DNA of 64,000 nucleotides. Source: a virus (lineage: Duplodnaviria > Caudoviricetes). Shown in pieces: positions 4,379 to 64,000 of the stretch (positions within the stretch are counted from its first letter, which is position 1; every line of letters begins with the position of its first letter). The notes under the pieces are model-generated. The model worked only from the letters and a program-made list of their open reading frames with translations, did not search any database and had not been told where the DNA came from. The stretch is taken from IMG/VR virus record IMGVR_UViG_2585428004_000001, positions 32,001-96,000 of that record; one strand, 5' to 3'. The position numbers and the translations under genes were made by a program.

Positions 4379-4420
4379 TTAAACAAAACCATTGCAATGT
4401 TGCTGATAGTGTGCTAAAAT
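4379..4420 (+). promoter_or_regulatory. sigA-type promoter whose -35 (TTGCAA) is part of the AAACAAAACCATT motif
   Basis: TTGCAA 4392-4397, 17 bp, TAAAAT 4415-4420. Confidence 0.8.
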
Positions 4421-4457
4421 GATACTATCAGCAATTTGTTTATGTAGGTGAAAATAT

Positions 4458-5504
4458 ATGAATGCAGAACAGTTAAAAGCGTATCTTGTAGAAGATGTAG
4501 AAAGAATTGAAAAGTTATTAGAAGCCGTTGGTTGTCATCGTATCTGGCGTAGTGGGGACGAGATTCGTTCAGCACCACCAGAAGGTAATAACCACACTGC
4601 AGTATCTGTAAATGTGGATAGTCTCTATTGTAAGTATTACAGAGAAAGAGAGACATTTCGTGGAGACATATTCAAATTGATTGGATTGTTTCGTAACGAA
4701 GGGTTTAAAGAGTCGTTTAGGTTTACACGTAATCTCTTCAACTTAAGTGGCAAGTTCACCAAGGAGAAAGAGAAGCGTGACCCATTGCAAGCCTTTAAGT
4801 CTATAAGGAAGCAGAGTAAGATAATCACTGACTTCGATGATGTTGAACTAACTAAATATGGGAAAGAGGTATTAGATGGATTCATAATGTTGCCTCATAT
4901 GTCTTTGTTCCACGAAGGGATAACGTTGCAGTCTCAAGAGTTCTACGACGTTTGCTATCATCCACAGGATGGCAGAGTTTGCTTCCCTCATTACCATCCT
5001 TTAGACAAGGAAGCTATTGTCGGCATCACTGGAAGGACTTTGAAGAGCAAGGCAGAGATGGAGGCTTTTAATATCCCTAAATACTTCAACTTCATTAGAA
5101 ACTATAAAAAGTCCTACTCGTTATATGGGTTTAGCCATGCAATCGAAGAGATTGAGAAGGCTAAGATGATTGTAGTTGTAGAAGGAGAGAAGAGTGTTCT
5201 TAAACTGCATTCAATGAAGCAGGGATATGCAGTGTCAGTTGGTTCTCATGAGATATCTCCAGTGCAGGTTAATTTAATCTTAAAGTACACATCCATGGAT
5301 ACTGAGGTAGTCGTCGCTTTTGATAGTGATGTTATGAAGGATGAACAGTATCTTATTAACTGCTGTAAGAAGTTCTCTAAATACAGAAAAACTAGCTACA
5401 TCATGGACAATCCTAACTTCCCAATATTAGGTGAAAAGGATGCGCCTGTCGATGGCGGTGTTAAGAAATGGAATCATCTATTGAAATATCGAAAGGAGGT
5501 TTAA
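4458..5504 (+). CDS. DNA primase (DnaG-like TOPRIM)
   Basis: VVVEGEKSV, VVAFDSD, FP...GITGRT; replication context. Confidence 0.85.
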   Translation: MNAEQLKAYLVEDVERIEKLLEAVGCHRIWRSGDEIRSAPPEGNNHTAVSVNVDSLYCKYYRERETFRGDIFKLIGLFRNEGFKESFRFTRNLFNLSGKFTKEKEKRDPLQAFKSIRKQSKIITDFDDVELTKYGKEVLDGFIMLPHMSLFHEGITLQSQEFYDVCYHPQDGRVCFPHYHPLDKEAIVGITGRTLKSKAEMEAFNIPKYFNFIRNYKKSYSLYGFSHAIEEIEKAKMIVVVEGEKSVLKLHSMKQGYAVSVGSHEISPVQVNLILKYTSMDTEVVVAFDSDVMKDEQYLINCCKKFSKYRKTSYIMDNPNFPILGEKDAPVDGGVKKWNHLLKYRKEV

Positions 5505-6364
5505 ATAGATTGTTAGAACACACTTTCAAAACTGGCAGAAGATACTTTACAGATGAACAAGGGGAAGTAGTCTTGATTGAATGTGGAAACTGTAAGGATG
5601 TCAAGGGTTTAAACGAGTTTCCCAGACAGTCTACCTGTAAAAAGACAGGTAGAAGGTCGTTTTGTGAAACTTGTCATAAAAATAGGAAAAAGGCTTATTA
5701 TCAAGAAAACAAAGATACTCTCAGATATTACCATGAAAGAAAAGATGATAAAGAGTATATGGACAAGCGAGCGAAGTGGAGAGAGGACAACAAGGAGCAT
5801 CTTTCAAATTACAACAAGCAATATCATAAAGAAAAGAAGGATAAAGTGTCCAAGAGGAAAAGGGATTATTGTAGCAGGGAAGAGGTAAAATCTCATAGAA
5901 CAGAGTATATGAAGCTGTATCGTAAAACAGAAGATGGTAAAGAAGCTTTTAAACGAGGTATGAGTAATAGGAGGATGGCTAAAAACAATACACCTGTAAC
6001 AATTGACTGCATAGTTGCTATTAAGGACTTTAAGAGTTTATTCGGAAATGTATGTTGTTTTACAGGATTAAAGATACTAGAGGAAAGCACTGAGCATATG
6101 CTACCTGTTACTCGTGGAGGTGGCAACACCGAATACAATATTGCTCCATCTGAATTATCTTTGAACAGGTCGAAGAACAATAGAAATATATTCGACTGGA
6201 TAGAGTTACTTGAAGAGGATATTGATTTTTCATTCTTCTATGAAAGTACTATCCCATATCTCGCAGAGAAGATGGGAGTAAGTATAGAGGAGTATGTATT
6301 ATGGTATGAAGAAAGCTATGAAGAGAAATTGGATGTATATCATATGAGCTTGGTAGAGTCGTAA
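5468..6364 (+). CDS. HNH homing endonuclease
   Basis: Zn-finger CGNC...CETC, basic helical linker, EHMLPVTRGGGNTEYNI...NRSK. Confidence 0.8.
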   Translation: MESSIEISKGGLNRLLEHTFKTGRRYFTDEQGEVVLIECGNCKDVKGLNEFPRQSTCKKTGRRSFCETCHKNRKKAYYQENKDTLRYYHERKDDKEYMDKRAKWREDNKEHLSNYNKQYHKEKKDKVSKRKRDYCSREEVKSHRTEYMKLYRKTEDGKEAFKRGMSNRRMAKNNTPVTIDCIVAIKDFKSLFGNVCCFTGLKILEESTEHMLPVTRGGGNTEYNIAPSELSLNRSKNNRNIFDWIELLEEDIDFSFFYESTIPYLAEKMGVSIEEYVLWYEESYEEKLDVYHMSLVES

Positions 6365-6414
6365 TCTTCTGCCAACAATTATTGTAAAACAAAACCATTA
6401 AAACGAGGTGCGAG

Positions 6415-7413: not shown

Positions 7414-8682
7414 ATGGCACGTTTAACATATCAGCAGTTAGAGTTAATAAAGGAAAAGATGAACGTTAAGCAAATTTGGAGTTTTAGTAAGATGAGTACA
7501 TTCTCACAGTGTACTTGGGCGTACTTTTTACGTTATATCCAAAAGATTCGTGTGAAAGGTGACAACTGCTATACAGTATGGGGAACAAACTCCCATGATA
7601 TCATACAGGGATTCTATGAAGATGAGTTTACTTATGAAGGCATGCTAGTTGAATTGGAGCAGAGAATCCTTGATTATCTAATGGCAGATGATAAGAAGCT
7701 TAAGTTCCCAAATGATAGTGAATGGGAATCATATATTGCTAACATTCGACATTACTTCACTAATACAGAAGTAATTCCATACAAGGTTGTAAATGAGAAG
7801 CCAGTATTAGCAGAATTCAAAGGTATTGAGAAGTATATCTTCCAAGGCTACATAGACTCCGAATATTATGACGAACAGAATAACTTTGTAATCCTTGATT
7901 ATAAAACATCTTCTATGAGCGGATTTACAGGCAAGAAGTTAATTGAGAAGGCTCAACAGCTTATCATCTATGCATTTGGTGTTAGTAAGTTCCGTAAGAT
8001 TCCTATGGAGAAGATTCGAATCAGATACGATATGATGAAATACTGCAATGTAACATTCATGCAGAAGAATGGAAAAGAGAAGACTTCAAAAGCTGAACGT
8101 AGACTTTGGGTTGCTCATATGGCTAATCAAATTCGAAAAGACCTTCAAGATGTTCCAAAAGAGATTGAGAAGGTTAATAAGGAGATTGCCAAGCTTGAGA
8201 GAAAACTTAATCTAAAGAAGACTACAGAAGAAGAGAAGCCTGCTATCAATGCACTAATTGAAGTAGAGAAGCAGAAGATTGTAGAGATAGAGAAGGATTT
8301 ATTCGATGTAGTTACTATTGATGATATGATTACAACGGCTATCAATGAGAATAACTTAGATAACATGCCTCCATTTGTTAAGAATAAGTATAAAGTTGGC
8401 AATTGCTATATTGATGTTGAATTAACACCAGAGGTTCTTGAAGAGGTGGAATCTCAAATTGTTGATACATTAAACAAAATCATTAAAAAAACTGAAGCGG
8501 AGAATCATGAAGAGGCGTTTACCAGAGGTAAAATCGAGAACAGTGATTCATACTACTGTGTGAATCTTTGTGATATGAGAGACCACTGTAAGTTCTATAA
8601 AGAGTTCAAAGAGCATAATGCTATGTTCTTAGAGAAGGAAGCGCCAAGTGACGAGCAAATCCTTGCTATGCTAGGTTTATAG
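7414..8682 (+). CDS. PD-(D/E)XK nuclease (RecB/Cas4-like)
   Basis: SFSKMSTFSQC, GYID...ILDYKT, QLIIYA, C-terminal Cys cluster. Confidence 0.8.
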   Translation: MARLTYQQLELIKEKMNVKQIWSFSKMSTFSQCTWAYFLRYIQKIRVKGDNCYTVWGTNSHDIIQGFYEDEFTYEGMLVELEQRILDYLMADDKKLKFPNDSEWESYIANIRHYFTNTEVIPYKVVNEKPVLAEFKGIEKYIFQGYIDSEYYDEQNNFVILDYKTSSMSGFTGKKLIEKAQQLIIYAFGVSKFRKIPMEKIRIRYDMMKYCNVTFMQKNGKEKTSKAERRLWVAHMANQIRKDLQDVPKEIEKVNKEIAKLERKLNLKKTTEEEKPAINALIEVEKQKIVEIEKDLFDVVTIDDMITTAINENNLDNMPPFVKNKYKVGNCYIDVELTPEVLEEVESQIVDTLNKIIKKTEAENHEEAFTRGKIENSDSYYCVNLCDMRDHCKFYKEFKEHNAMFLEKEAPSDEQILAMLGL

Positions 8683-8759: not shown

Positions 8760-8840
8760 ATGAAGAGATGGCAAAGGGTTTTGTTTATCACTGCGATGCT
8801 AGTTGTAGGGATGATACTAGGCGCATCTGGTACGGTCTAA
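8760..8840 (+). CDS. 26-aa hydrophobic peptide
   Basis: RBS GAGGAG; MKRWQRVLFITAMLVVGMILGASGTV; TGCTATAAT upstream. Confidence 0.5.
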   Translation: MKRWQRVLFITAMLVVGMILGASGTV

Positions 8841-8865: not shown

Positions 8866-8907
8866 TTAAACAAAACCATTGCAATCTAATGGACTCCATG
8901 TTAAGAT
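8866..8907 (+). promoter_or_regulatory. motif-overlapping sigA promoter
   Basis: TTGCAA 8879-8884, 17 bp, TAAGAT with TG extension. Confidence 0.75.
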
Positions 8908-8937: not shown

Positions 8938-9420
8938 ATGGCAGTAGATAAATTGGAACGTGTGAAAGAGGAAGCGTATCATACTAAAAGTAATCCATTA
9001 GGATATGAAACGTCTCTTATGGATAAAAAGGATTTTGATTATCTTGTAGAGCAGGCTGAGAAGGTCGCTAAGTTAGAATCAGAGATTCAACAGTTGAAAA
9101 CAACGGTTAAAGGCTCTGAGGATGCTTCTCGTCTCGATGATTTAGCGAAGGAGAATGAGCATTTAAGAAATTCTCTTCGAAGAATAAAGGGTAGGAGTAG
9201 TCTTATTGGTAAAGAGATTAAGAACTTCTATTGCAATGGCTATTTTGGAAGGCGATACGACCTAGAATGCAGTATTATTATGGAGGTTGGCATTGACCAT
9301 ATCAAAATCAGAACAACAAGTGGTGAATTTCTCGTCACAAGTTTTGATGGTGATTGGGATGAATATACCGATAAGATGATTGCAGAATGGATAGGGGAGG
9401 TAGAAGATGAAGGTCTGTGA
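8938..9420 (+). CDS. hypothetical coiled-coil protein
   Basis: RBS GAGGAGG, 160 aa. Confidence 0.75.
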   Translation: MAVDKLERVKEEAYHTKSNPLGYETSLMDKKDFDYLVEQAEKVAKLESEIQQLKTTVKGSEDASRLDDLAKENEHLRNSLRRIKGRSSLIGKEIKNFYCNGYFGRRYDLECSIIMEVGIDHIKIRTTSGEFLVTSFDGDWDEYTDKMIAEWIGEVEDEGL

Positions 9421-10237
9421 AGTCTGCGGTGCAACTAGTGAAGAGAAAGTGATTGTAAGCGGAAGAAAGTACAGCCATTCTTTTCTTTGTAAAAGACACT
9501 ATAATCAGTACAGTAATTATGGAAAAATAACTGATGTAAACAAAGATAAGTTAAGAGAAGCGAGACAGTGTAGTGTCTGTGGAAAAGACGAGAGTGCAAG
9601 TAAAGTGTTCAAGGGAGATAAGTTTGGATACAAGTATCTTTGCAAGAAGCATTACGACCAGATGAGTGTTTACGGTAAGATACTAGAACGCACCTCTGAC
9701 TCACAATATACCAACAGTGAAATTAAAACTGACGAAGATACAGTCTATATAACATTGAAGAACAGAAGGTATGAAAAGATTGGCACAGCGATGGTAGACA
9801 TTAAAGACCTAAGTGCCGTTAAAGATAAAAGATGGTCTATGAATAAGGACGGATATGTTGTAACTAGGGTAAGCGGTGAATTAAAATTTCTTCACCATAT
9901 AATCGCAAATCCTAGCTCTATAAAAAACATTGTAGTTGACCATGAGGATAGAAATAAATTAAACAACAAGCGAAGTAACCTTAGGGTTATTGAGAAACAG
10001 AAGAATCACATGAATCATAGTGGTTATAAAAATAACAAGTCTGGATTCACTGGAGTAAGTCAGAATAAGAAAAATGGAAAGTGGATTGCTAGAATTCACA
10101 TCAATAAAAAACCAACTCAGATTGGGACGTTTGATAAAATTGATGATGCAATAGAAGCTAGGTTAAAAGCAGAACTAGAGCATTATGGAAAAGAATTCGC
10201 TCCTCAAAGACATCTATTTGAGAAGTATGGTATATAA
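9407..10237 (+). CDS. HNH-AP2 homing endonuclease with two N-terminal Zn-finger repeats
   Basis: Two CxxC...LCKxHY repeats; VDHEDRNKLNNKRSNLR; SGFTGV...WIARI AP2 domain. Confidence 0.88.
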   Translation: MKVCEVCGATSEEKVIVSGRKYSHSFLCKRHYNQYSNYGKITDVNKDKLREARQCSVCGKDESASKVFKGDKFGYKYLCKKHYDQMSVYGKILERTSDSQYTNSEIKTDEDTVYITLKNRRYEKIGTAMVDIKDLSAVKDKRWSMNKDGYVVTRVSGELKFLHHIIANPSSIKNIVVDHEDRNKLNNKRSNLRVIEKQKNHMNHSGYKNNKSGFTGVSQNKKNGKWIARIHINKKPTQIGTFDKIDDAIEARLKAELEHYGKEFAPQRHLFEKYGI

Positions 10238-10247
10238 GGAGGAAGTT

Positions 10248-13200
10248 ATGAGCGTATATACAGCTATACATTTACATACAGACCTTAGTAATCAGTCGAT
10301 GGTTGAGGTTGTAAATAATTATAAACAGTATATCGATAAGGCAGTGGACATGGGTATGCACTCCATCGCCTTTACGGAACACGGCAATGTTTTATCACAT
10401 TATAACAAGAAGATGTATGCTGAAAAGAATGGACTTAAATATCTTCATGGTTGTGAAATTTACGTCACTATGACGTTAGAAGAAAAGGTTCGTGACAACT
10501 TCCATATGGTGTTACTTGCTCGTAATTTCGAAGGTTTTAAAGAGTTGAATAAGATGGTTTCTACCGCCTTTAATAGAAAGGGTAATTCTTATTACTATAG
10601 TCCTCGTATCTCTTGGGAAGATATCAAGAATACATCTGACAACATCATTATTTCGACAGCATGTCTTGGTGGAGTTATCTGGCAGTTACATAAGAATCGA
10701 ACAGGTAGCGCTAATTCACAAGTGATGCTTGCAGAAGTGGTTCAATGGATGACAGAGAATAAGCATAGAGTGTTCCTTGAAGTCCAACCACATTACCATG
10801 TTGAGCAGATTCAATACAATAAGATGCTACTGAATATCTCTGAGAGAACAGGTATTAGACTAGTAGCAGGTTCTGATACACATGCTTTAAATCCAGAGTA
10901 TGACAAGGCTCGTAAAGTCTTACAGAAGGCTAAGCGAATCAAGTTTACAGATGAAGATAGTTTTGATTTAAGCTTCCATTCATATGATAGAATGGTAGAG
11001 ATGTTCAAACGACAAAGTATCTTTACAGAGGCTCAGATTCATGAAGCATTACAGAACACAAATGTTATTGCTGATATGGTAGAGCCATGGGAGATAGATT
11101 ACAGCAAGAAGTATCCTAAGTTATACGACAATCCAGAGGAAGTGTTCCAGAAGAAGATTTCAGAAGGTATTGTTAAACGAGGAATCGACAAGCTACCCAA
11201 TCATGAGAAGATTGTTTATGCAGAGCGAATTCAGCATGAACTGGAAGTATACAAAGCCAATGAAGCGATAAATTATATGCTTCTTGAAGATGACGTTAAG
11301 TCATATGCTCGTAGTAAAGGCGTTCGTTATGGATTTGGTCGTGGCTCAGTAAGTGGAAGTATCATTGCTTATCTAATGGAAATTACTCATATGAACTCAA
11401 TTGACCGAAAGTTAAACTTTGCACGATTCATGAGTAAAGAGCGTATCTCTCTAGCAGATATCGACACTGACTTTCCACCATCACAAAGACCAATTGTACA
11501 GGATTACTTGTTAAACCATCCTAAGTTGCACTGTGCGAAGATTATCACTTATAACAAAATTGAGTTACTTGGTGCAATTCGAGATGTTGGTCGAGGACTT
11601 GATATGTCGTTAAATGAAGTAGATGATATTGCAAAAGGTATAGAAGAAAGCGAACAGTATTATCGTGACAAATACCCAGAGTTATTCTACTATGTAGACT
11701 TAATCCAAGGTACAATTGTGAGTATAGGAGCGCATGCCTGTGGTATTGCTGTATCTCCAATTCCTCTAGATGAGAACATGGGGTTAATCACAGTAATCGA
11801 TAATAAAACAAAAGAGCCTGTTACACTTACTCAAATCAATATGAAGGAAATCGATGCTCAGAACTTCGTAAAGCTTGATATCCTTGGTCTTGATACAGTA
11901 GAGACAATCAGTAACACAGTTGATTTAGCAGGGTTAAAATGGGAAGATATCCTTCCAGAGAACATCGATACAGAAGATGAAAAGGTTTGGAACAGCGTTA
12001 TTGACGATAACATTGGTATCTTCCAGTGGGAGTCAGACTTTGCTCATCAAATCTATAAAGATTTGTTCTCAAACGAAACCATTGCAAAAATCAAAGCGGT
12101 GCATCCTAAGTTCTCATACATGGACTTATTCTCACTAGGGAATGCAATCCTTCGTCCTGCAGGCGCTTCGTATCGTGATTCTGTGGTACAAGGTGAGTTC
12201 TATGACAATGGTCATGAAGCATTGAATAAATTCCTTGCTCCAACACTAGGGCGACTTGCATATCAAGAGCAAATCATCGACTTCTTAGTTCAGTTCTGTG
12301 GCTATAGCGGTGGTGAGGCTGACTTAGTAAGACGTGGTATTGGTAAGAAGGACAAGGCATTGCTAGACACATTGATTCCAGAAATCAAGGCAAGATTCAT
12401 ATCTAGTATGATTAAGAGATATCAGACTCGTAATGTGGTAGCTGAACAAATCTCTGAGCCATTCATTCAAGTAATCTTAGATGCTTCCAACTATGGATTC
12501 TCTATCAATCACTCAGATGCTTACTCAGCAATGGGATATGTTATGGCATGGTTACGATACTACTATCCATTAGAGTTCATCACAGCAAACCTAAATGTAA
12601 ACATTGGTAAGCAAGATAAGACTACTAAGCTAGTAGAGTTTGCGAAGTCAAAAGGTATAGCATTGAATGGTATCAAGTTCAGATACTCTCGTTCTGGATA
12701 CATGTTTGATAAAGATACAAACTCAATCTACCAAGGTATTGAGCCGATTAAGTACCTCAACTCTGCTATGGCTGATGGGCTATATGAGTTAAGAGACAGA
12801 GAGTATGAAAGCTTCATTGACCTGCTTATTGATATCAAGGATGGTACAAGAACTGTAGACTTGGCATCTTTAACAGAAGAAGAAGTTACTGCAGATGATT
12901 GGGATGTTTATGCAACAGGTGAAGAGCCTCCAACTATAACAGTACATCATGTAGACTTTGGCAATGCTAAATCAATTGGCTACAAAGAGTTTCTTTTACA
13001 AGACTTGTCCAAGGAAGAACTGAAGGAATTGAACAAGTTAGAGAAGCATGGTGGAGTTAGATATGTTGGAACACCAGTAGCAATCAACTCACGTCAAATG
13101 CAAATCTTAATAGCACTTAACTTCTTTAGTGAGTTTGGTGGCAATAGAAAACTTCTTAAGATATTTGAATTCTTTGAGAAGACTTATAGCCCTAAACATA

Positions 13201-13625
13201 AGCTAAAGACTAAGAGAGAGCGTTATACAAAAACATTGCAATTTGAGCAAGATACGATTGATGAAAGCTTATCACTGGTAGAACAGTGTACATCAGAATT
13301 AGAGTTCCTTGGTCATATTGAGACAATCAATGCAGAGATGCCTGCGAATATCTTAATCATGACAGAGGTATTGAAGCATAAGACATATACTCGTGCCAAG
13401 GCGTACCAGTTCTCAACAGGGGAGACAAGAGAGTTTAAAATGGGTAGCAGAATCTATGCTCAAGTACCATTTGAAGAGCGTGATGTTATCCAGATTGTAA
13501 ATGCCGATGTCAAACCAAAGAATAAGAAAATCAATGGTCACTGGCAACCATCTCCTACAGAGAAGGAAGTATGGCTCAAGGAAATCACGTTTATCAGAAA
13601 GGGAGTAGATAGTAGTGGCGAGTAA
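10248..13625 (+). CDS. dnaE: DNA polymerase III alpha subunit (DnaE-type)
   Basis: PHP motifs HLHTD, FTEHG, SDTH; GRGSVSGS, DIDTD, KLDILGL, YQEQ, YGFSINHS; RBS AGGAGG favours ATG 10248. Confidence 0.95.
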   Translation: MSVYTAIHLHTDLSNQSMVEVVNNYKQYIDKAVDMGMHSIAFTEHGNVLSHYNKKMYAEKNGLKYLHGCEIYVTMTLEEKVRDNFHMVLLARNFEGFKELNKMVSTAFNRKGNSYYYSPRISWEDIKNTSDNIIISTACLGGVIWQLHKNRTGSANSQVMLAEVVQWMTENKHRVFLEVQPHYHVEQIQYNKMLLNISERTGIRLVAGSDTHALNPEYDKARKVLQKAKRIKFTDEDSFDLSFHSYDRMVEMFKRQSIFTEAQIHEALQNTNVIADMVEPWEIDYSKKYPKLYDNPEEVFQKKISEGIVKRGIDKLPNHEKIVYAERIQHELEVYKANEAINYMLLEDDVKSYARSKGVRYGFGRGSVSGSIIAYLMEITHMNSIDRKLNFARFMSKERISLADIDTDFPPSQRPIVQDYLLNHPKLHCAKIITYNKIELLGAIRDVGRGLDMSLNEVDDIAKGIEESEQYYRDKYPELFYYVDLIQGTIVSIGAHACGIAVSPIPLDENMGLITVIDNKTKEPVTLTQINMKEIDAQNFVKLDILGLDTVETISNTVDLAGLKWEDILPENIDTEDEKVWNSVIDDNIGIFQWESDFAHQIYKDLFSNETIAKIKAVHPKFSYMDLFSLGNAILRPAGASYRDSVVQGEFYDNGHEALNKFLAPTLGRLAYQEQIIDFLVQFCGYSGGEADLVRRGIGKKDKALLDTLIPEIKARFISSMIKRYQTRNVVAEQISEPFIQVILDASNYGFSINHSDAYSAMGYVMAWLRYYYPLEFITANLNVNIGKQDKTTKLVEFAKSKGIALNGIKFRYSRSGYMFDKDTNSIYQGIEPIKYLNSAMADGLYELRDREYESFIDLLIDIKDGTRTVDLASLTEEEVTADDWDVYATGEEPPTITVHHVDFGNAKSIGYKEFLLQDLSKEELKELNKLEKHGGVRYVGTPVAINSRQMQILIALNFFSEFGGNRKLLKIFEFFEKTYSPKHKLKTKRERYTKTLQFEQDTIDESLSLVEQCTSELEFLGHIETINAEMPANILIMTEVLKHKTYTRAKAYQFSTGETREFKMGSRIYAQVPFEERDVIQIVNADVKPKNKKINGHWQPSPTEKEVWLKEITFIRKGVDSSGE

Positions 13626-13866
13626 AAAGAGACCTGTTATGTTTATCCCATCTAACTTTACAGTTGCAGAGAAAGTTAGAATTAGCTTTGAAGACTGCAA
13701 TATCAAAATGCACGATGGCATTGAAATGCTATATGCAAACATGTACAAAGACCATTTTGAAGGTGACCTTTACTATAAAGGTTGGGATATCTATACCGAA
13801 GATAACCCAGTAGTATTTTTAGACAAAATTGAATCAGTTATTTTACAGGAGGAACGATTAGTATGA
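13615..13866 (+). CDS. hypothetical protein
   Basis: Overlap-coupled ORF, 83 aa. Confidence 0.7.
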   Translation: MASKKRPVMFIPSNFTVAEKVRISFEDCNIKMHDGIEMLYANMYKDHFEGDLYYKGWDIYTEDNPVVFLDKIESVILQEERLV

Positions 13867-14198
13867 CAACTAAAACAATTACATTATCAGAGAAGAGATT
13901 TGAAGAAATCAAAAAAGGCACAGTATTAAAGTTTGAAAATGACTTGTTTATCGTAGCAGAAATTGAAGGTGCTAAAAACGTAGACCCTGTCAACGATGCT
14001 TTATTTAGTCCAAGTTCTATTAGAAGCACACCATATTTCAGACAAGAGCGAGTGGAGGCTAAGTACAACTTAGTAAGCTTTATGAGTGGTTCTCGATTCT
14101 ATGGTGAAAACACTTCTTTACAAGAACTTATTCGAAAAATCACCAATCGTACTCGTAAGTTTCAAGTAGTAGATAAAATTGAATTTATCGAAGGTTAA
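13863..14198 (+). CDS. hypothetical protein
   Basis: RBS GGAGGA, 111 aa. Confidence 0.75.
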   Translation: MTTKTITLSEKRFEEIKKGTVLKFENDLFIVAEIEGAKNVDPVNDALFSPSSIRSTPYFRQERVEAKYNLVSFMSGSRFYGENTSLQELIRKITNRTRKFQVVDKIEFIEG

Positions 14199-14250
14199 AC
14201 AAATCCATTAAGATATAATATTAAACAAAACCATTGCAAAGGGGATAGTT

Positions 14251-17454: not shown

Positions 17455-17513
17455 TTGACATAGTGTGGCTATGATGCTACACTATTGATATTACTTAAAC
17501 AAAACCATTAAAA
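17455..17513 (+). promoter_or_regulatory. sigA promoter with downstream motif copy
   Basis: TTGACA-17-TACACT; motif 17497-17509 before the RBS. Confidence 0.75.
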
Positions 17514-19768: not shown

Positions 19769-19862
19769 TTAAACAAAACCATTGCAACGGATTTCTGTTT
19801 ATGGTATAATAGTTCTTGTTGGTAGATAATTTCTTTTATACCATTAAACAAAACCATTGAAA
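19769..19862 (+). promoter_or_regulatory. nrd operon promoter: motif/-35, -10, inverted repeat, second motif, RBS
   Basis: TTGCAA 19782-19787, 17 bp, TATAAT 19805-19810; second motif 19846-19858. Confidence 0.85.
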
Positions 19863-19874
19863 AAGAGGTGTGAA

Positions 19875-22348: not shown

Positions 22349-22437
22349 TTAAACAAAATCATTGCAATAATTTAGATGGTATGTTACTATAAGAGAGGGT
22401 TGTTTCATTGCTCAACCCTCTTAAACAAAACCATTAA
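22349..22437 (+). promoter_or_regulatory. motif/-35, -10, hairpin, second motif, RBS
   Basis: TTGCAA-17-TACTAT; GAGGGTTG/CAACCCTC hairpin; motif 22423-22435. Confidence 0.8.
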
Positions 22438-24031: not shown

Positions 24032-24058
24032 AACTAAACAAACAGAATGGAGAATACG

Positions 24059-24325
24059 ATGAAATTAATTAAATTTGAACAATCAGACTGCACACCTTGT
24101 AAGATGTTAAAAGAGTTTATGGAAGGATTAGGAGTTGAGGCTGACAAAGTAGTTAACCTTACAACTGCTACAGAAATGGAAGACTTCATGTTGGCAAGTA
24201 AGCATGGTATTGAGAAGACTCCAGTTCTTCTAATTGAAGACGACAATGGTAAAGAGATTGCTCGCTATAAAGGTGTAGGTCAAACTGGAGTTAAAGCAAT
24301 CCTTGTTCAACGTGGCTTAATATAA
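24059..24325 (+). CDS. thioredoxin/NrdH-like redoxin
   Basis: CTPC motif, cis-Pro TP; follows nrdF. Confidence 0.85.
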   Translation: MKLIKFEQSDCTPCKMLKEFMEGLGVEADKVVNLTTATEMEDFMLASKHGIEKTPVLLIEDDNGKEIARYKGVGQTGVKAILVQRGLI

Positions 24326-24392
24326 AACAAAACCATTAAAATAGGGGAGCTTATCTCCCCTTGTACATAACAAACAAGGAGGATTACCAATC

Positions 24393-26016: not shown

Positions 26017-26077
26017 TGGTATCATTTAGAGTGAGGTAGGAATCTTTTTACTTCACTCTAAAACAAAACCATTGAAA
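25997..26077 (+). promoter_or_regulatory. sigA promoter, hairpin and motif copy
   Basis: TTGACA-17-TATCAT; TAGAGTGA/TCACTCTA hairpin; motif 26061-26073. Confidence 0.75.
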
Positions 26078-26719: not shown

Positions 26720-26995
26720 ATGACGATGGGGAGTCCAATAGACGATATGCTTGCTAAGCAAAGAGAGATTGATGAAAAGCTATCTCCAAGCAAATATGAA
26801 ATGCGTTATATTACTGACTATGCAAGAGTGATTTATGACAAGGCTCAACTTGTAAACAATGCTTCTGAAATGGCTCACCAAGGATTGATTGATTTTGAAC
26901 TTGCTCAAAAAATCATGGATACGCAAAAGGAAAACATTAAAAGTGATATTAAGTATCTGCAAATTTACTTAGGAATTGACGAAAAGGATAATTAA
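26720..26995 (+). CDS. hypothetical protein
   Basis: 91-aa ORF with RBS. Confidence 0.7.
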   Translation: MTMGSPIDDMLAKQREIDEKLSPSKYEMRYITDYARVIYDKAQLVNNASEMAHQGLIDFELAQKIMDTQKENIKSDIKYLQIYLGIDEKDN

Positions 26996-27022
26996 ACAAA
27001 TCCATTAAAAGGAGGTGATACG

Positions 27023-29559: not shown

Positions 29560-29587
29560 ACTGCCGATAATAAAGCTTATGTAAACT
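29560..29587. other. dif-like Xer recombination site
   Basis: ACTGCCGATAA TAAAGC TTATGTAAACT; 11-6-11 layout; right arm identical to the B. subtilis dif arm TTATGTAAACT. Confidence 0.8.
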
Positions 29588-29611
29588 AATTAAAAGTAAG
29601 TTCTAAAACAA

Positions 29612-32210: not shown

Positions 32211-32226
32211 CAATGGTTTCGTTTTA

Positions 32227-33608: not shown

Positions 33609-33720
33609 AAAATCTCCTTCTCTTGCCTTCTGGCAAGCTTTTATTTTTATATATATAATGGAAGAAACTCGATTGGAGAACCCTCATTAATATCAATCAT
33701 TGCAATGGTTTTGTTTAATG

Positions 33721-37144: not shown

Positions 37145-37219
37145 TTGCAATGGTTTTGTTTAATATCTCCTTAATCAACTCTACTACCCTATTCTACCAC
37201 ATTTAAAAAACGGTGTCAA
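37145..37219 (-). promoter_or_regulatory. sigA promoter with downstream motif copy
   Basis: TTGACA-17-TAGAAT (37219-37191); motif 37161-37149. Confidence 0.75.
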
Positions 37220-41386: not shown

Positions 41387-41428
41387 ATTTTATCATTTAA
41401 ACATTATAATTGCAATGGTTTTGTTTAA
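41387..41428 (-). promoter_or_regulatory. motif-overlapping sigA promoter
   Basis: TTGCAA 41415-41410, 17 bp, TAAAAT 41392-41387. Confidence 0.8.
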
Positions 41429-48894: not shown

Positions 48895-48927
48895 TTAATC
48901 TAACACCTCTCTTTGCAATGGTTTTGT

Positions 48928-49971
48928 TTAACCTTCTTTGTTTTGATTCTTTTTCTCTCTAAGCTTCTTCATCTTCTCACGAATTTCAGCTTTAGATTTA
49001 GGCTTAACATAGTGTTTCTGAGTAGTAGAAACATCACTGTGATTCAAGAACTCTTGAGCCATTGTTAAATCACCAGTTTCTTCAACAATAAGATTACCTT
49101 TTGTTTTTCGTAAACAGTGAGGATGTAAATCTGTTAATCCCAGAATTGTACCCATCTTTCTTACTCGCATATAGATTGAAGTCTGAGACATCTTTCTATA
49201 CTCTCCATTGTATTTAATGACGAAGAAAGCATCACACTCAAGGTTATCCATGCTCTTGCGCATCTCTAACCACTGCTCAATCAGTTTCTTTGTGCCTTCC
49301 TCAAAGGTAACCTCTACTCGTTTACCACGTTTCTCACGGATGTCTACAAACATCATTTCCTCTAAGTCTAGGGAAGATATAGTTAACTTAGAAATTGCTC
49401 CATTTCTATTTGCTGATTCAATAGCGATATTCCAAATCAATAGGTCTTGGAAGTCAAACTTTCTACCCTTTGGTTTCTGAATATCTTCTACAAGAACCTT
49501 GGAGATAACATCAACTTGCTCTTGGGTTAAGAAATAGTGGTTAATAAGGCGCTCGTCATTAGCACCCTTCATTCTATCTAGTTTCTTGTCAAAAGGATGA
49601 ATGTCAATAATTCCCCTCTTAACTGCCCATACATAGTATGTAGAAACAGCAGAAAGCTTTGTGTTAATAACCTTCTTGTTATTTCCAAGCGTATCTTGAC
49701 AGAATCCAATGAACCCTTCCATGATATCTACGCCATTCTCCATTAACTCATCGTCATGAATGAAGATGTTCTCCCATTCTTCTTCTAAGTAAACAAGAAA
49801 TTGATTAAAGTAGTTTTGATACACTTTGTACGTTGTATCTTTTACATCTTTATTTTTAATGATGTTCGACTTCAGATACTTGTCGTAAGCCTTTATATTC
49901 TTAGGGTTAATTCTAGCTTTCTTTTCTTTTGTAAAATATCGCTTATAAACCCTCTTTAGTTGTTCTGCCAC
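48928..49971 (-). CDS. tyrosine recombinase (XerC/D/integrase family)
   Basis: R (SANRNGA), K (EKRGK), HxxR (HPHCLRK), H (LNHSD), Y (TQKHY) all present; SAM-like N-terminal domain. Confidence 0.9.
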   Translation of the reverse strand: MAEQLKRVYKRYFTKEKKARINPKNIKAYDKYLKSNIIKNKDVKDTTYKVYQNYFNQFLVYLEEEWENIFIHDDELMENGVDIMEGFIGFCQDTLGNNKKVINTKLSAVSTYYVWAVKRGIIDIHPFDKKLDRMKGANDERLINHYFLTQEQVDVISKVLVEDIQKPKGRKFDFQDLLIWNIAIESANRNGAISKLTISSLDLEEMMFVDIREKRGKRVEVTFEEGTKKLIEQWLEMRKSMDNLECDAFFVIKYNGEYRKMSQTSIYMRVRKMGTILGLTDLHPHCLRKTKGNLIVEETGDLTMAQEFLNHSDVSTTQKHYVKPKSKAEIREKMKKLREKKNQNKEG

Positions 49972-51142: not shown

Positions 51143-51235
51143 TTTAATGGTTTTGTTTTAAACCGACTTTTAATTGCAATGGTTTTGTTCAATCATTGGT
51201 AATACTAGATTAACATAAAGAGAGACTAGTGTCAA
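51143..51235 (-). promoter_or_regulatory. sigA promoter followed by two tandem motif copies
   Basis: TTGACA-17-TAATCT (51235-51207); motifs 51190-51178 and 51158-51146. Confidence 0.75.
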
Positions 51236-52061: not shown

Positions 52062-52103
52062 ATTATAAATCACAAACAATTAAATTGCAATGGTTTTGTT
52101 TAA
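52062..52103 (-). promoter_or_regulatory. motif-overlapping sigA promoter for the holin unit
   Basis: TTGCAA 52090-52085, 17 bp, TATAAT 52067-52062. Confidence 0.8.
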
Positions 52104-52633
52104 GATTGTTCAGTTTCTTCTTTAGGAGTCTCTAATGGCTTATCCCAATCTACTGCAACAATCTCCGTATGAGTCTTTGCATCTGCAATTTTTCTTTTTA
52201 ATAAACTGTACTTAAATAGTTGAGTTCTTTTATGCTTGAAAGCCTCTCTGTACACTTGATTGAGCCATTCGTCTCTTGTATGCTCGGTATAATCTACATC
52301 TTCAGTTTTCCATTGTACTGTTTGTGATTCTTTATCAAAGAACAGCAGTTCAAGAGCCTGCCCATAAAAATTGACTTGGTCATCTAGTTTCATTCTATAA
52401 ATATGACCATTGGTAGATTTAAATCCTGTAACAATAACCTCGTCACATTTCTCAGATAGCATATCGCTCTTCAGTTTCTTATGGTGACCTAGAATATACT
52501 CCTCTGTGATTTGGGAGAGAACTGCCCCCTCCCTTTTCGCCAATGTCGTAATAAGTTCATTCTTTTGTTCCATGGTCATTCTGTCGAAGCCAATGTCTAC
52601 TAATAGTTTTTCAATTTGAGAATCGAAAATCAC
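52100..52633 (-). CDS. tail fibre assembly/chaperone protein (DUF4376-like)
   Basis: C...I..GF....Y.M...DQ.N...W...I..A......V.W pattern; follows the fibre gene. Confidence 0.65.
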   Translation of the reverse strand: MIFDSQIEKLLVDIGFDRMTMEQKNELITTLAKREGAVLSQITEEYILGHHKKLKSDMLSEKCDEVIVTGFKSTNGHIYRMKLDDQVNFYGQALELLFFDKESQTVQWKTEDVDYTEHTRDEWLNQVYREAFKHKRTQLFKYSLLKRKIADAKTHTEIVAVDWDKPLETPKEETEQS

Positions 52634-59423: not shown

Positions 59424-59528
59424 TTTTAATGGTTTTGTTTAATAACAATATAAGAGAAGTACTCATCTCTTATATATTTTAATGGTTTTGTTCTAGTTAA
59501 TTATACTATTATAAGTAGGATTGGTCAA
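59424..59528 (-). promoter_or_regulatory. tail fibre promoter: promoter, motif, hairpin, motif, RBS
   Basis: TTGACC-17-TATAAT (59528-59500); motifs 59493-59481 and 59440-59428; ATATAAGAGA/TCTCTTATAT hairpin between them. Confidence 0.8.
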
Positions 59529-59634: not shown

Positions 59635-60393
59635 TTACTCACCAATGATTTTGTAAGTAGCCATGTTTTTGTTTTTGTCTGGGAACAAGTCGAATGTGAT
59701 TTCTAACTTAGTTGGTTCAGTCGCAGACATTGTGATTGTGAAATTAGATTGTGGACGAGCCATTGGGTACTCGATTTGGATGAATTCATCCTTACCAGAT
59801 TCTTTCTCACGGATTAACGCATCTGCAACGATACGAACAGCTTTAGGGAACTTATCAGCAGAGATATTGATTACTTTTGCTTGAGTATCTTTTACTAAGA
59901 AGTAAACAGCGTAAGCATCTCCTTCTACAGCATCAGTACCGAAAGTAACGTCAGAACCAGTTACAGAGAATTGAGAAGCAGTTGGAGCAGTTTCAACTTC
60001 TGTTAAAGGTTGTCCAATATGTTCTACTTCGTCAGCGCCAACTTTAATTACAGCTACAGAGCCTTTTAATGGTGCGCCACCTAAACTAGCTTTCTTAGTA
60101 GAGCCAACCTTAACGATTTCACGTTTTGCAACGTTTGTTTCTCCAGTTACGATTTCAGAACCTGCAACTAAAGCAATCCACTTAAGGTCGAATACTTCCA
60201 TCTCAACTTTTAATGTACTCTGACGGTCAGAGTCCCATGCGATTGCGTTAGTACCTTTAGACTTTGCGAAAGTACGCTCAGAAGTCCATTCATTTGTAGA
60301 AACGTTTGCGTAGTCAGAGAATAAATCTGGTACGTTTGTAGCTTTGTCAAACAATGTGATGTTTGCACAGTCTTTAATTCCGTAAATTGCCAT
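59635..60393 (-). CDS. major tail tube protein
   Basis: YGIKDCAN...NFTITMSA.EP..ITFDL; own terminator; tail operon. Confidence 0.75.
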   Translation of the reverse strand: MAIYGIKDCANITLFDKATNVPDLFSDYANVSTNEWTSERTFAKSKGTNAIAWDSDRQSTLKVEMEVFDLKWIALVAGSEIVTGETNVAKREIVKVGSTKKASLGGAPLKGSVAVIKVGADEVEHIGQPLTEVETAPTASQFSVTGSDVTFGTDAVEGDAYAVYFLVKDTQAKVINISADKFPKAVRIVADALIREKESGKDEFIQIEYPMARPQSNFTITMSATEPTKLEITFDLFPDKNKNMATYKIIGE

Positions 60394-60470
60394 CTTATAG
60401 ATGCACCTCTTCTTGTATTATTTTGCAATGGTTTTGTTTAACATTGCATTTGTGATTAAAGGGATTACCT

Positions 60471-61238
60471 TTAATTTCCGATTTTAAGTGTTTCTAGCCA
60501 GTGCTTGATATCATCTTTAACATCAAACTTCTCGCTAAGTTTGTACTGCATTGCAGTACGATAAGTGTCCATTCCAATAATACTTTTGTAAGCATTGTAG
60601 AATTGGAAGTAAGTCATCTCATCTATCTCTCTTGGAGCGATGTATGATGTCCCACCAAAGGATACATAGTTTGCTATATCTTGCAAATGAACAGCATCCT
60701 TTTCAGCCTTTCTTCTTCTACCCTTTTGTAGCTTCTCCCAGATATCTTTCTGTCTCTTGGTCATATTCTTAGGAGGCTTTTCAACCTCAATGTCCTTTCG
60801 ACCTAAGACACCTTGGATAACCTTTCTTAGATTTTCAAACTCATTCTTATCAATAAGATAAGATTTGTTTACAACGATTTTCTGTCTCTTTTCAAGGACT
60901 TTAATATCATCTGCTCTAAGGAAATAGGACAGGCTGTGTTTTAACACTTCTAATGCACCTTCACTATTGAAAACTGCCTTGTCTAGAATGGTAGTACCTT
61001 CGTCTCCTTTTAAGAAGAACAGTTCGAAGATACTCCATTTTCTAACAAGTTCTTCCTCATTGTCAGCGCCAGTGAAGACAGCATCTGTCGTAAGGATATA
61101 GGGCATTATCAACGATTGGAACAAGTCCTCTCCCATATCTACAACCTCTTTCATCGAAGGTTGATAGACATATGTCTGGCTATCTTCGTCAACCAGAATT
61201 GGTCTGCCCATAAATACTCTCATTTTATCTACAGTCAT
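60471..61238 (-). CDS. phage structural/assembly protein
   Basis: Morphogenesis operon, 255 aa. Confidence 0.65.
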   Translation of the reverse strand: MTVDKMRVFMGRPILVDEDSQTYVYQPSMKEVVDMGEDLFQSLIMPYILTTDAVFTGADNEEELVRKWSIFELFFLKGDEGTTILDKAVFNSEGALEVLKHSLSYFLRADDIKVLEKRQKIVVNKSYLIDKNEFENLRKVIQGVLGRKDIEVEKPPKNMTKRQKDIWEKLQKGRRRKAEKDAVHLQDIANYVSFGGTSYIAPREIDEMTYFQFYNAYKSIIGMDTYRTAMQYKLSEKFDVKDDIKHWLETLKIGN

Positions 61239-61794: not shown

Positions 61795-62814
61795 TTAATA
61801 TGGACTAATAATTTTTACCGCCTTAGAAGCAAGTACACCATCTGCTGTTTTGCCAACGATAGTAATCTGCGAACCAACCTTTTGGAAGTTGGATACAATT
61901 CTAATAGAAATGCCTTTTGTACTTTGTTCAACAATCGTTGCTATTGCGCTATCATCCATGACAGTCCACTCAGTAACACCTTCTTCTGGCACGAGCTGAC
62001 CATTTTCATAGACACTAGCTTCATATTTCACAGTAGAACCAATCTTGGCTTTATCAGAACCAGTGATAACCAACGTTTTCTCTATAGGATTTGGCTTTTC
62101 TTCCTCACCAGTAGATGGCTTTTCTCCATTAATATAGTAATCTGCAATACCAAGTTCGACATTGTCCCTAGTTGGGTCTACAAAGTCTTCCTCAAGTAAG
62201 AACTGAATCATCCCATTACGAGACATCCATTCCTTAAACATGACTTGATATACAGCTCCACTAATGAATACCCTTTGACCAAGTTTAATTGACCTCGTCT
62301 GTGGATTGTCTTGCATGTACATTAACATTTTAGCGTTTACAATCCATGAGTGATGACCAGATGTACTAAGACCAAGTGTATATAATGTATTGTTCTTGAT
62401 TACAGCAGGATGACCATCGCCATCTTTTCCACTGACCTTACCATCAATCATCCACTTGATTCTTCCATTTGATGGTCTGATTTTGGTTTGCTTATGAGTT
62501 GGAACAGACTTTTCTTCATCAGAGAATATTAACCATTCTCTTTCTCGCCACTTCATAATTGAACCAACTTTTAAATTACTCTCATTCTTTACAACCATAT
62601 ACTTATCATCTGACAAGTCTTTATTGTTGTTTTGGTTTTGGTCATTGATTACTGCGAATTGTTTTACGCCATCAATTTCAACCTCTTCCTTTGCAAGAGT
62701 ATTCTCAAACCATAATTCAAAAGACCTCGACATTTTCTTGAAATTTCTCTCATATCGAGTTCCACCTTTGGCATCCATTCGACTTCTAAATGTTGAGTAA
62801 CTCACTCTTACCAC
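61795..62814 (-). CDS. putative head-closure/neck protein with C-terminal Ig-like domain
   Basis: Position; ITGSDKAKIG..YEA...W.V Ig-like tail. Confidence 0.6.
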   Translation of the reverse strand: MVRVSYSTFRSRMDAKGGTRYERNFKKMSRSFELWFENTLAKEEVEIDGVKQFAVINDQNQNNNKDLSDDKYMVVKNESNLKVGSIMKWREREWLIFSDEEKSVPTHKQTKIRPSNGRIKWMIDGKVSGKDGDGHPAVIKNNTLYTLGLSTSGHHSWIVNAKMLMYMQDNPQTRSIKLGQRVFISGAVYQVMFKEWMSRNGMIQFLLEEDFVDPTRDNVELGIADYYINGEKPSTGEEEKPNPIEKTLVITGSDKAKIGSTVKYEASVYENGQLVPEEGVTEWTVMDDSAIATIVEQSTKGISIRIVSNFQKVGSQITIVGKTADGVLASKAVKIISPY

Positions 62815-63242
62815 CCCTCTAACGAGAAGTCTTTGTAAGTGTAAGAAACAGCGTACTCACGAATTTCATCTTTAAGCTTTTCATCAATCTTTGATATTTC
62901 TTTAAGATATCCTGTACCCTGCACAGCTTTATAGTCTCTGTCACCAATTTCTTTGCTCATTAAATCTGCATTATATAACTTAGAAGACAACCATGCCTTC
63001 TTCATCCCTAATGCTAAGATGTGCTGTTCCTGTGTAGTTAAGTCTTCATGAAACTCACCTACACCATTTTCCTCAGTGATTAATTCCAAATTCTTGGTAC
63101 ACTGTGGAAAGTGTAGGCTTCTAGCTTCATCAAGATAACCAAAGAGGACTTCATTCAATTCCTCGTCAGAGACAAGTTTCAATGTGTAGTCATCTATCAT
63201 TCCTAGGAACTTCCTGTTAATAGACATGAAAGATGTCGCCAT
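62808..63242 (-). CDS. putative head-tail adaptor
   Basis: Position; helical, 144 aa. Confidence 0.6.
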   Translation of the reverse strand: MATSFMSINRKFLGMIDDYTLKLVSDEELNEVLFGYLDEARSLHFPQCTKNLELITEENGVGEFHEDLTTQEQHILALGMKKAWLSSKLYNADLMSKEIGDRDYKAVQGTGYLKEISKIDEKLKDEIREYAVSYTYKDFSLEGW

Positions 63243-63253
63243 TGCAACACCTC

Positions 63254-63898
63254 CTAGATTCTTAAGTCTTCGTCAACCTCTGTCGCTTCAGCATCTTCGA
63301 AGATTTCGTCACCAACATGCTTTCTAATAACCTGCATCTTTTGGTAGTCACCAAATTCACCAAGTTTAAATAGACCTACAGCAGTTTCGATAATCTTCTT
63401 AACTAGCTTCGAATCGGAAGTTTCCATGACGTGCTTGAATTTTTGTGTATTTGATTTAAGAATGAATTCTTTAATATCAGACGAGTCTACCTGTCCACGT
63501 TTCCACTCTGGACTAAGAGCGAAATACTCATCATACTTCTTATCTAATCCAAGATAAACAAGTACATCTTCTAATTCATACTCTCCACCAACAACCTCTG
63601 TAATCAGTAAGCTGAATCCTTCTAAAATCTTTCTGTTAGAGTTTAGAATTACACGAAGGTCGCCAACAGTAATATAGTCTTCATCCCCACGACTTTCCAT
63701 ATCTAATGCTGTTTGCATTTTTGGATTGTCATAGACAAAGCGCCACAGCTCATTATTCACTACGATTACCTCTGTATTGCGGTCAATATTTACACGCTTT
63801 CTACGTTGAGGCTTCTCGTCTCGTTTATTTAACTCTGGACGATTATTTCTATTGTTATTTCTTCGATTTGAATGGTTATGTTTTTCCATCTTTTGCAC
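63254..63898 (-). CDS. phage morphogenesis-region hypothetical protein
   Basis: 214 aa; motif copy upstream; probable start ATG 63889. Confidence 0.65.
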   Translation of the reverse strand: MQKMEKHNHSNRRNNNRNNRPELNKRDEKPQRRKRVNIDRNTEVIVVNNELWRFVYDNPKMQTALDMESRGDEDYITVGDLRVILNSNRKILEGFSLLITEVVGGEYELEDVLVYLGLDKKYDEYFALSPEWKRGQVDSSDIKEFILKSNTQKFKHVMETSDSKLVKKIIETAVGLFKLGEFGDYQKMQVIRKHVGDEIFEDAEATEVDEDLRI

Positions 63899-64000
63899 TC
63901 TCCCACTATTTTTGCAATGGTTTTGTTTAATAAAGGAAAGAAGGAGTCGTCTAGGTACTCCTCCCCTCCCTTATATAGATTGTATCACAATGACAATGTC

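Follow-up and report, generated by a model that had tools for sequence, protein, structure and literature searches.

The 64,000-nucleotide stretch analysed here (the window) spans bases 32001-96000 of the 119,986-bp virus record IMGVR_UViG_2585428004_000001 (Duplodnaviria; Caudoviricetes), which carries direct terminal repeats and is rated complete; positions below are those of the window unless marked as genome positions. A 120-kb contig identical to the record (100%) is present in a 5.6-Mb bacterial assembly (G001). Pfam scans covered 148 of the 163 open reading frames (ORFs), the remaining 15 being shorter than 60 aa, and identified DnaE, primase-like, RecD2-like, ribonucleotide reductase, ThyA, dihydrofolate reductase (DHFR)-dUTPase, tape-measure, fibre, amidase, holin and TerL proteins. 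Traits of a plasmid prophage were also seen among the proteins, with an actin-like ALP_N protein, Rep-like DnaA_N/HTH_36 proteins, an Xer-like recombinase and a Rap-like tetratricopeptide-repeat (TPR) protein, and two LexA boxes as well as relatives that are circular plasmids point the same way. Dispersed among these genes is a short repeated box with the 13-mer AAACAAAACCATT at its core. Scanning of the window revealed 19 exact copies, a number reached in none of 100 dinucleotide-preserving shuffles of the window (mean 0.01), and 29 copies at up to one mismatch against 0.38 expected, while the whole genome holds 39 exact copies and 58 at up to one mismatch. Within assembly G001, 39 of 41 exact copies sit on the 120-kb contig (a reversed-pattern control gave 3), indicating that the motif is a property of the element and not of the host. 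With a coding density of about 90% by the ORF set used, no exact copy (0/39) falls in well-supported coding sequence genome-wide; all 19 in the window lie outside well-supported genes, the 5' TAA of some of them being the stop codon of the upstream gene. An initial annotation of this DNA had claimed 19 exact copies, which are borne out here, and about seven one-mismatch copies, a count that the scan raises to ten. It had also described the motif as intergenic but for the copy at 12071; this holds for all exact copies, whereas three one-mismatch copies are found inside ORFs (8472 in a nuclease gene, 12071 in dnaE, and 63871 in the first codons of ORF 63254-63898), and the function of these three is uncertain. 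Among the box strings searched for in the literature no relevant occurrence was found, all matches being unrelated.

Conservation extends somewhat beyond the 13-mer. The real conserved block is 19-20 bp in length, TWAAACAAAACCATTRMAA, running from 2 bases before the 13-mer to 4-5 bases after it, with a conserved purine (R) at the first position 3' of the 13-mer and no conservation outside the block. The initial annotation had called the motif non-palindromic, and this longer block is asymmetric. The lack of conservation beyond 19-20 bp led us to reject a mobile-element origin of the boxes, and a methylation or restriction motif was rejected on length. In 13 of the 58 copies the TT of the box and the next four bases (TTGCAA, TTGACA or TTGAAA) are followed by a −10-like hexamer at exactly 17 bp. 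The same register test gave no copy with a −10 hexamer at 16 bp and one at 18 bp, and none of the copies that continue with TTA has a −10 hexamer at 17 bp. Six such −35-type copies lie within the window (4381, 8868, 19771, 22351, 41414 and 52089). We then applied a second placement rule based on predicted sigma-A-type promoters (−70 to +45 of the start), with a junction defined by a Shine-Dalgarno sequence (SD) within 16 nt. This rule placed 13 copies at a −35 element, 3 in a spacer or −10 element, 10 within 45 nt after a start site, 1 upstream, 10 at SD-adjacent junctions and 21 elsewhere, so that 27/58 copies lie within −70 to +45 of a predicted promoter; the two rules agree on 11 of 13 −35-type sites. 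Given that the box is found at −35 elements, in spacers, at start sites and in leaders, it behaves as an operator rather than as one promoter class or an activator site. The −35-type promoters match the consensus at 5-6 of 6 positions in both hexamers, which makes an activator role of the boxes unlikely.

The near-identical, oriented and intergenic copies with a conserved R after the 13-mer are reminiscent of phage RNA polymerase promoters, and the box could itself be a promoter, or part of one, for phage-specific transcription machinery, with transcription starting at the purine 3' of ATT and a short leader with an SD, which lies within 16 nt downstream in 20/58 copies. It also fits the AR9 late-promoter consensus, a likeness set aside since no polymerase genes were found. 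A six-frame search of the genome gave no match to Sigma70_r2 or r4_2, and the Pfam scans of 148/163 ORFs were likewise without a sigma, RNA polymerase or NusG family. As to a YonO-type polymerase, no unannotated ORF of that size and no polymerase family in the scans was seen, although no search was aimed at YonO, and this candidate was rejected. Because sigma-A-type promoters are found all along both gene arms, no extra polymerase is needed, and the occurrence of 13 copies in exact sigma-A −10 register, with others in spacers or after starts, is a spread typical of operators. We therefore regard a phage-specific promoter as quite unlikely.

That 13 copies are true promoter −35 regions could also mean that a host factor reads the box, which would then serve the host polymerase as a combined UP-element and −35 module or be the site of a global regulator, and an A-tract upstream of a −35-like TTGNAA does resemble strong Bacillus promoters. 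By contrast, all but 2 of the 41 copies in the host assembly belong to the element, 31/58 copies are near no predicted promoter, and related elements of one host group differ at the centre of the box (CC versus GT/TT, see below) while a B. velezensis plasmid shares the CC box of this genome, making a host reader very improbable. Strong intergenic promoter candidates without a box include one before a Rep-like gene (genome 110045) and one at genome 116578. A variant, AAACAAATTCATT, recurs upstream of −35-like hexamers at genome 7014 and 19215 (+) and at 37228-37240 (−); its distance to the hexamer is 8 nt at genome 7014 and window 37228 (TTGACA) and about 19 nt at genome 19215 (TTGCAA), which puts it at about −56 and −67, respectively, and not at the −35.

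The exact copies in the window comprise ten on the + strand (4381-26061) and nine on the − strand (33704-63916). Genome-wide, the strand blocks of the box (+ at 462-58994, − at 64212-109924 and + at 111893-115588) match three gene-orientation blocks, and 53 of the 58 copies are co-oriented with the next ORF according to an automatic rule. The five others are two inverted-pair partners, one likely chance match, a copy at the end of an operon and a copy next to a 50-aa ORF that is itself doubtful. The initial annotation had placed every + copy at or before 27006 and every − copy at or after 32212, always pointing with transcription. This strand rule is kept by 28 of 29 window copies and broken by 8774(−), AAACAAAACCCTT, the sole antisense copy in the window and probably a chance match. 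The first polarity flip, between 27006 and 32212, coincides with the convergence of the two gene arms. The second, at about 110-112 kb of the genome, falls where the arms diverge, indicating that box polarity follows the gene arms. Of the proposal that polarity flips at a dif-like site, the flip in this interval stands, and its link to the dif-like site is one of position alone. The dif-like sequence itself lies at 29558-29588, within the gene-free convergence zone.

Box polarity changes close to the Rep-like region (about 110-112 kb) and again in the convergence zone that contains the dif-like site, as would be expected of a polar replication or segregation signal leading from the origin to that site, such as FtsK-orienting polar sequences (KOPS) or SpoIIIE recognition sequences (SRS). 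Strand alone separates nothing here because replication and transcription are co-oriented. The absence of exact copies from well-supported coding sequence despite the high coding density and the fixed register of the boxes with −10 hexamers, stop codons and SDs argue against such a signal. The motif is also longer, at 19-20 bp, than KOPS and SRS words, which are skewed 8-mers found within genes too along each replichore, and we consider this the least credible of the readings weighed.

Besides promoters, the boxes are found tightly wedged between genes. In the 20 copies with an SD within 16 nt on the 3' side, the SD lies at 2-14 nt, and on the 5' side the preceding T and the first two A's of the box form the upstream stop codon in at least five window copies (14197, 24325, 26994, 48917 and 52089). 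Strict gene co-orientation, this SD spacing and the presence of several copies in leaders, after 5' hairpins, raise the possibility that junction copies act in mRNA, where they could bind a translational regulator, mark a processing site or serve as a ribosome stand-by site 5' of the SD. However, −35-type copies precede the start sites of their own promoters, a constant 17-bp distance to −10 hexamers is a property of DNA, and each of two inverted box pairs (genome 108362/108382 and 111893/111914) includes a copy that no gene reads in sense. Given that the 5' contact, in which TAA is the upstream stop, is equally tight, genome compaction explains the SD spacing, and we hold an mRNA-level role to be improbable. 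The two inverted pairs look like bivalent operators. Short hairpins without a U-run are found at 22395-22422 and 59445-59465 (−), each between a promoter-type and an SD-adjacent box of one leader, and may be 5' stabilisers.

What could read these boxes? The genome encodes a single protein of the MrpR/SroF family (genome 12800-14029, 409 aa, about 19 kb before the window), which matches the Pfam models MrpR_N_CB (E 1.2e-18, 68 bits) and MrpR_C_cat (32.2 bits), both above the 27-bit cut-offs, and the MrpR structure 8a0a in the PDB (E 7e-14). An AlphaFold2 model of this MrpR homologue (pLDDT 87.5) has its best fold match in 9rd5, 'Phi3T SroF bound to DNA' (E 2.7e-14). It is 24% identical to SPbeta MrpR and has an extra N-terminal region of about 95 aa. 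As described in PMC10516654, SPbeta MrpR binds dispersed SPBRE boxes in ten promoter regions, and at least two promoters, PaimR and PyosX, are repressed by it. For phi3T, a preprint (10.1101/2025.11.27.690993) describes SroF as a monomer on an asymmetric A-tract box, reading 24/26 bp through three helices (alpha2 in the CB domain, alpha13 and alpha18 in the CAT domain), and released by the LexA-controlled antirepressor Sar. A monomer on an asymmetric site would account for a box that is not palindromic.

The promoter of the mrpR operon, TTGACT-17-TATAAT (genome 11978), is accompanied by imperfect (one-mismatch) boxes only, at about −56 and +8, and directly before mrpR a GT-type box (genome 12672) is followed by a degenerate one (12705) that falls within the spacer of a promoter, TTGCAA-17-TAAGAT. 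The presence of these weaker sites at genome 11957-12717 suggests a putative autoregulation of mrpR. The only two intergenic LexA-type boxes of the genome lie in tandem at genome 19254-19304, on a TTGCAA-17-TATGAT promoter that precedes four small genes (genome 19335-20714). The fourth of these encodes a 178-aa protein with a net charge of −18. This operon may be an antirepressor module under SOS control, comparable to Sar in phages of the SPbeta family.

Several searches for relatives were made. Megablast with dnaE gave no close phage relatives, and at the protein level the best match was 46%. A 17-mer scan of viral contigs gave single matches only, which we judged to be chance, and the same scan of genome contigs gave single matches plus several on one scaffold, which is 100% identical to this genome and hence of no use for comparison. 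A search for MrpR loci with a single-sequence query found none, while an alignment query found 9 viral and 11 metagenome loci; whole-genome searches around G001 (105 and 401 genomes) added only G094, G042 (with stop codons) and G458. MrpR homologues with 35-47% identity were located on IMG/VR contigs, on metagenome contigs and on circular plasmids (130-138 kb) from B. wiedmannii and B. velezensis; pJ2_2 (L153), a plasmid with an orphan MrpR-like gene in a non-phage setting, was left out of the comparison. Boxes of these relatives share the frame AAACAAAA-NN-ATTG(A/C)(A/C)A, each element with its own version. The centre is CC in this genome, in locus L163 and in the B. velezensis plasmid (29 strand-polarised copies at up to one mismatch), GT plus TT in L162, L166 and the B. 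wiedmannii plasmid (69 copies, 65 of them co-oriented), and GT in L157, L160, L161, L167 and L168, with other variants in L154, L155/L156 and G094; no clear box was seen in G458, L169, L172 or L173. In G458, another Bacillales genome, two MrpR-like genes lie in tandem (L175, G458:C15:14404-16312); they lack the N-terminal extension, and no clear box was seen near them. In the B. wiedmannii plasmid (NZ_CP032366.1), 13/34 GT copies are of the −35 type compared with 3/34 TT copies (Fisher p 0.009), the TT copies being mostly at junctions, and the two may represent two affinity classes.

The conservation check proposed in the initial annotation was run against this plasmid, for which 96 reciprocal-best gene pairs (mean identity 61%) were obtained. 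A box lies upstream of both members in 23 pairs, of this genome's gene only in 7, of the relative's only in 10 and of neither in 56 (Fisher p 8e-9), showing that box positions are kept at orthologous genes. Every box of the B. wiedmannii plasmid, by contrast, has GT or TT where this genome has CC. Such retention of position with a change of every centre is what co-evolution of the sites with a trans-acting reader would produce. We mapped the base-reading residues of SroF by profile alignment to chain 9rd5_H. The helix equivalent to alpha13 reads WRNINQR in all three CC elements (3/3), while other helices are found in 12/12 non-CC elements; in these, the residue aligned with phi3T K233 is E, N, D or Q. 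It would be chemically plausible for an arginine to read the GG that faces CC. The MrpR pair of this genome and the B. wiedmannii plasmid is 42% identical, the 11th lowest of the 96.

These comparisons also bear on the possibility that the operators are read by another protein of the element, such as the YopP-like recombinase beside mrpR, an HTH_36/DnaD-like protein or an unannotated one, with MrpR acting elsewhere. Further DNA binders are indeed encoded (two tyrosine recombinases, three HTH_3 proteins, MerR, HU and two HTH_36 proteins), one HTH_36 protein (genome 109136-109816) shares no more than 35% identity with its orthologue in B. wiedmannii, and co-variation at the level of a clade does not separate co-inherited genes. 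However, the Xre-type helix-turn-helix (HTH) protein and MerR are 71% and 97% identical between the two elements although the box changed, and proteins of these types usually read palindromes as dimers. The two other recombinases match Phage_integrase and not the MrpR models, and the change at a position that contacts bases in the phi3T structure (alpha13) is specific to MrpR. Another reader is therefore unlikely.

We compared this arrangement with known systems. SPBRE letters were derived here from the SPbeta sequence, and 11 copies were recovered in SPbeta at the ten genes named in PMC10516654, 11/11 pointing with the gene, most in the spacer or −10 element of a sigma-A promoter and 3 directly before an SD. 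The present element thus resembles SPbeta and phi3T in having a candidate repressor homologous to MrpR (YopR, SroF) by the Pfam MrpR models, 8a0a and 9rd5, asymmetric A-tract-rich boxes scattered over a large Bacillus phage genome, and LexA boxes before an operon of small genes as for the Sar antirepressor. As in SPbeta, the boxes lie in sigma-A promoters or directly before an SD, along the gene direction. It differs from SPbeta in having about 58 boxes instead of 11, in a box sequence unrelated by the motif-profile test, in placement (usually over −35 here, over the spacer or −10 there) and in being a plasmid-type rather than an integrated prophage. Moreover, the boxes here reach tail and lysis genes, which in SPbeta depend on YonO, whereas no RNA-polymerase-type family was found here among the scanned ORFs.

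Cluster A phages with the L5 gp71 repressor offer a second parallel. Their asymmetric sites number more than 20, are found in promoters as well as in short intergenic gaps and follow the direction of transcription, and the reader is monomeric in L5, whose site also contains a −35-like hexamer. The candidate reader here has an integrase fold and not the HTH plus stoperator-domain architecture of cluster A, and the hosts are Firmicutes with AT-rich genomes. Orientation-dependent elongation arrest has been shown for L5 and is only a proposal here. The Pfam scans showed only generic HTH_3 proteins, although no search was aimed at gp71; since the favoured reader has another fold, the likeness would be convergent. 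In L5-type phages, site orientation is strikingly correlated with the direction of transcription, as stated in PMC9283540. The literature searched for 'stoperator' was by title nearly all on actinobacterial phages, and none of it was on a Bacillus phage by title or abstract. Phage P1 is a third case, its plasmid prophage being silenced by C1 via many single asymmetric operators, a few of them paired as inverted bivalent operators. The latter resemble the two inverted pairs here, although repressor fold and host are unrelated and P1 has about 20 sites and is not known to have junction copies oriented with transcription. The system is thus likely to work like the L5 operator/stoperator network, with a reader that by descent is likely of the MrpR/SroF family.

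Taken together, these results make it probable that the boxes form an operator/stoperator-like network of the element's MrpR-family repressor, binding being predicted from sequence. A 19-20-bp asymmetric operator with the 13-mer as its core would be read on DNA by an element-encoded repressor, most likely the MrpR/SroF-family protein with its integrase fold. Copies at −35 elements, in the spacer or −10, or within the first 45 nt would keep RNA polymerase from initiating at most predicted co-oriented promoters, and replication, nucleotide, tail and lysis genes would stay silent while the element persists as a plasmid prophage. Copies squeezed into the gap that separates a stop codon from the ribosome-binding site downstream would be polar, stoperator-like roadblocks or auxiliary binding sites. 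The one argument for this is their kinship at the DNA level with the promoter copies together with the two inverted pairs, and junction copies could be roadblocks, auxiliary sites or elements with an RNA-level role. The initial annotation had proposed that one phage protein silences or licenses both arms. Silencing fits the operator placement, the single MrpR-family gene and the co-varying relatives, while licensing (activation) is unlikely because the promoters involved are already near consensus at −35 and −10.

Several observations weigh against a network read by the MrpR-family repressor. The box is not detectably like SPBRE (no exact and 3 one-mismatch copies in SPbeta; motif-profile p 0.77), although a differing specificity is expected because protein identity is only 24%. 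Neither a predicted promoter nor an SD-adjacent junction fits 21/58 copies, and the tight SD contact of the junction copies suits an RNA-level role equally. An unrecognised reader is possible among the 15/163 ORFs below 60 aa that the scans left aside or the many scanned ORFs without a family. Finally, the WRNINQR/CC elements form one clade (quick tree, SH-aLRT 100), so the co-variation may be a single event common to all genes of these elements. One further MrpR protein, P0028, has the WRNINQR helix although it falls outside the CC clade in this tree. The copies found in the window are collected in Table 1.

Table 1. Copies of the box in the window, with strand, class and immediate surroundings.
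Position	Strand	Class	Surroundings
4381..4393	+	exact, −35 type	TTGCAA, 17 bp, TAAAAT; before Toprim gene 4458-5504
6387..6399	+	exact, junction	22 nt past stop of ORF 5468-6364; SD +5 nt; ATG 6415
8472..8484	+	one-mismatch (TC)	within PD-(D/E)XK nuclease ORF 7414-8682
8774..8786	−	one-mismatch, antisense	AAACAAAACCCTT
8868..8880	+	exact, −35 type	TTGCAA, 17 bp, TAAGAT; before ORF 8938-9420
12071..12083	+	one-mismatch	within dnaE (10185-13625)
14197..14209	+	one-mismatch (AAACAAATCCATT)	preceding T + first two A's = stop TAA of ORF 13863-14198
14223..14235	+	exact, junction	SD 3 nt on; thyA ATG 14251
17497..17509	+	exact, ~7 nt past start site	TTGACA-17-TACACT; SD +5 nt; RecD2-like helicase ATG 17527
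19771..19783	+	exact, −35 type	TTGCAA, 17 bp, TATAAT
19846..19858	+	exact, leader, ~+29 of 19771 promoter	SD +6 nt; ORF 19857-20240, best fit to NrdI-like match
22351..22363	+	one-mismatch (TC), −35 type	TTGCAA, 17 bp, TACTAT
22423..22435	+	exact, leader, ~+26	right after 5' hairpin; SD +2 nt; ORF 22452-23036
24325..24337	+	exact, junction	overlaps stop of ORF 24047-24325; then hairpin, then ORF 24393-24689
26061..26073	+	exact, ~+29	promoter TTGACA-17-TATCAT
26994..27006	+	one-mismatch, junction	overlaps stop of ORF 26720-26995; SD +2 nt; start 27023
32212..32224	−	one-mismatch	after ORF 32227-32508; terminator-like hairpin 32210-32181 immediately next
33704..33716	−	exact	between ORF 33721-34362 and amidase gene 32586-33608
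37149..37161	−	exact, ~+23	TTGACA-17-TAGAAT; before ORF 36436-37125; two-mismatch variant 37228 upstream of −35
41414..41426	−	exact, −35 type	TTGCAA, 17 bp, TAAAAT; before ORF 40278-41363
48917..48929	−	exact, junction	overlaps stop of Xer-like recombinase (48928-49971); SD +7 nt; tape-measure start 48894
51146..51158	−	exact	SD 3 nt on
51178..51190	−	one-mismatch (GAAC...)	few nt past TTGACA-17-TAATCT promoter (read by eye)
52089..52101	−	exact, −35 type	TTGCAA, 17 bp, TATAAT; overlaps stop of ORF 52100-52633
59428..59440	−	exact	SD +2 nt; before 2251-aa tail-fibre gene (start 59401)
59481..59493	−	one-mismatch, at start site	promoter TTGACC-17-TATAAT
60427..60439	−	exact	between ORFs 60471-61238 and 59635-60393
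63871..63883	−	one-mismatch	first codons of ORF 63254-63898
63916..63928	−	exact, leader, ~+44	promoter −35 in further exact box past window end (genome 96006); SD +11 nt

Further genes of the element were noted in the course of the analysis. An Xer-like tyrosine recombinase gene (48928-49971, −), 80% identical to its B. wiedmannii orthologue, lies inside the tail module, and together with the dif-like site it suggests dimer resolution of a circular plasmid form. In the convergence zone, a box-free stretch at 30359-31471 (+) encodes a 370-aa RapH_N plus TPR protein without a B. wiedmannii counterpart, which may be part of a Rap-Phr-type quorum-sensing cassette. An HNH_3 plus AP2-domain endonuclease ORF at 9407-10237 (+), probably a homing endonuclease, overlaps the start of dnaE. 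The 346-aa ORF at 15171-16211 (+) combines DHFR (1-155) with dUTPase (216-343), the B. wiedmannii orthologue being DHFR only (163 aa). Pfam tallies for ORFs of at least 60 aa also include TerC, vWA-TerF-like, PARP catalytic, DarA_C, YdaS_toxin and Copine-like domains.

If proteins of the MrpR type read the boxes, one protein would silence a 120-kb plasmid prophage via some sixty sites, which would be the largest operator set proposed for the MrpR repressor family and the first stoperator-like layout reported outside actinobacterial phages. As a tentative and rather doubtful extension, an integrase-fold monomeric repressor may have evolved an L5-like strategy independently in Bacillus phage-plasmids, shutting dozens of sigma-A promoters and halting elongation in an orientation-dependent manner at junctions, with an alpha13 code (arginine for GG opposite a central CC; other residues for GT, TT and GA) that would set immunity groups across 115-150-kb elements. 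The compact 20-bp box, with or without a promoter, would be a possible portable control part for Bacillus genetics. Finally, the switch at the box centre together with one protein helix across the family would amount to a directly testable recognition code, and such a code could predict mutual immunity among the phage-plasmids of the Bacillus cereus group and B. velezensis.

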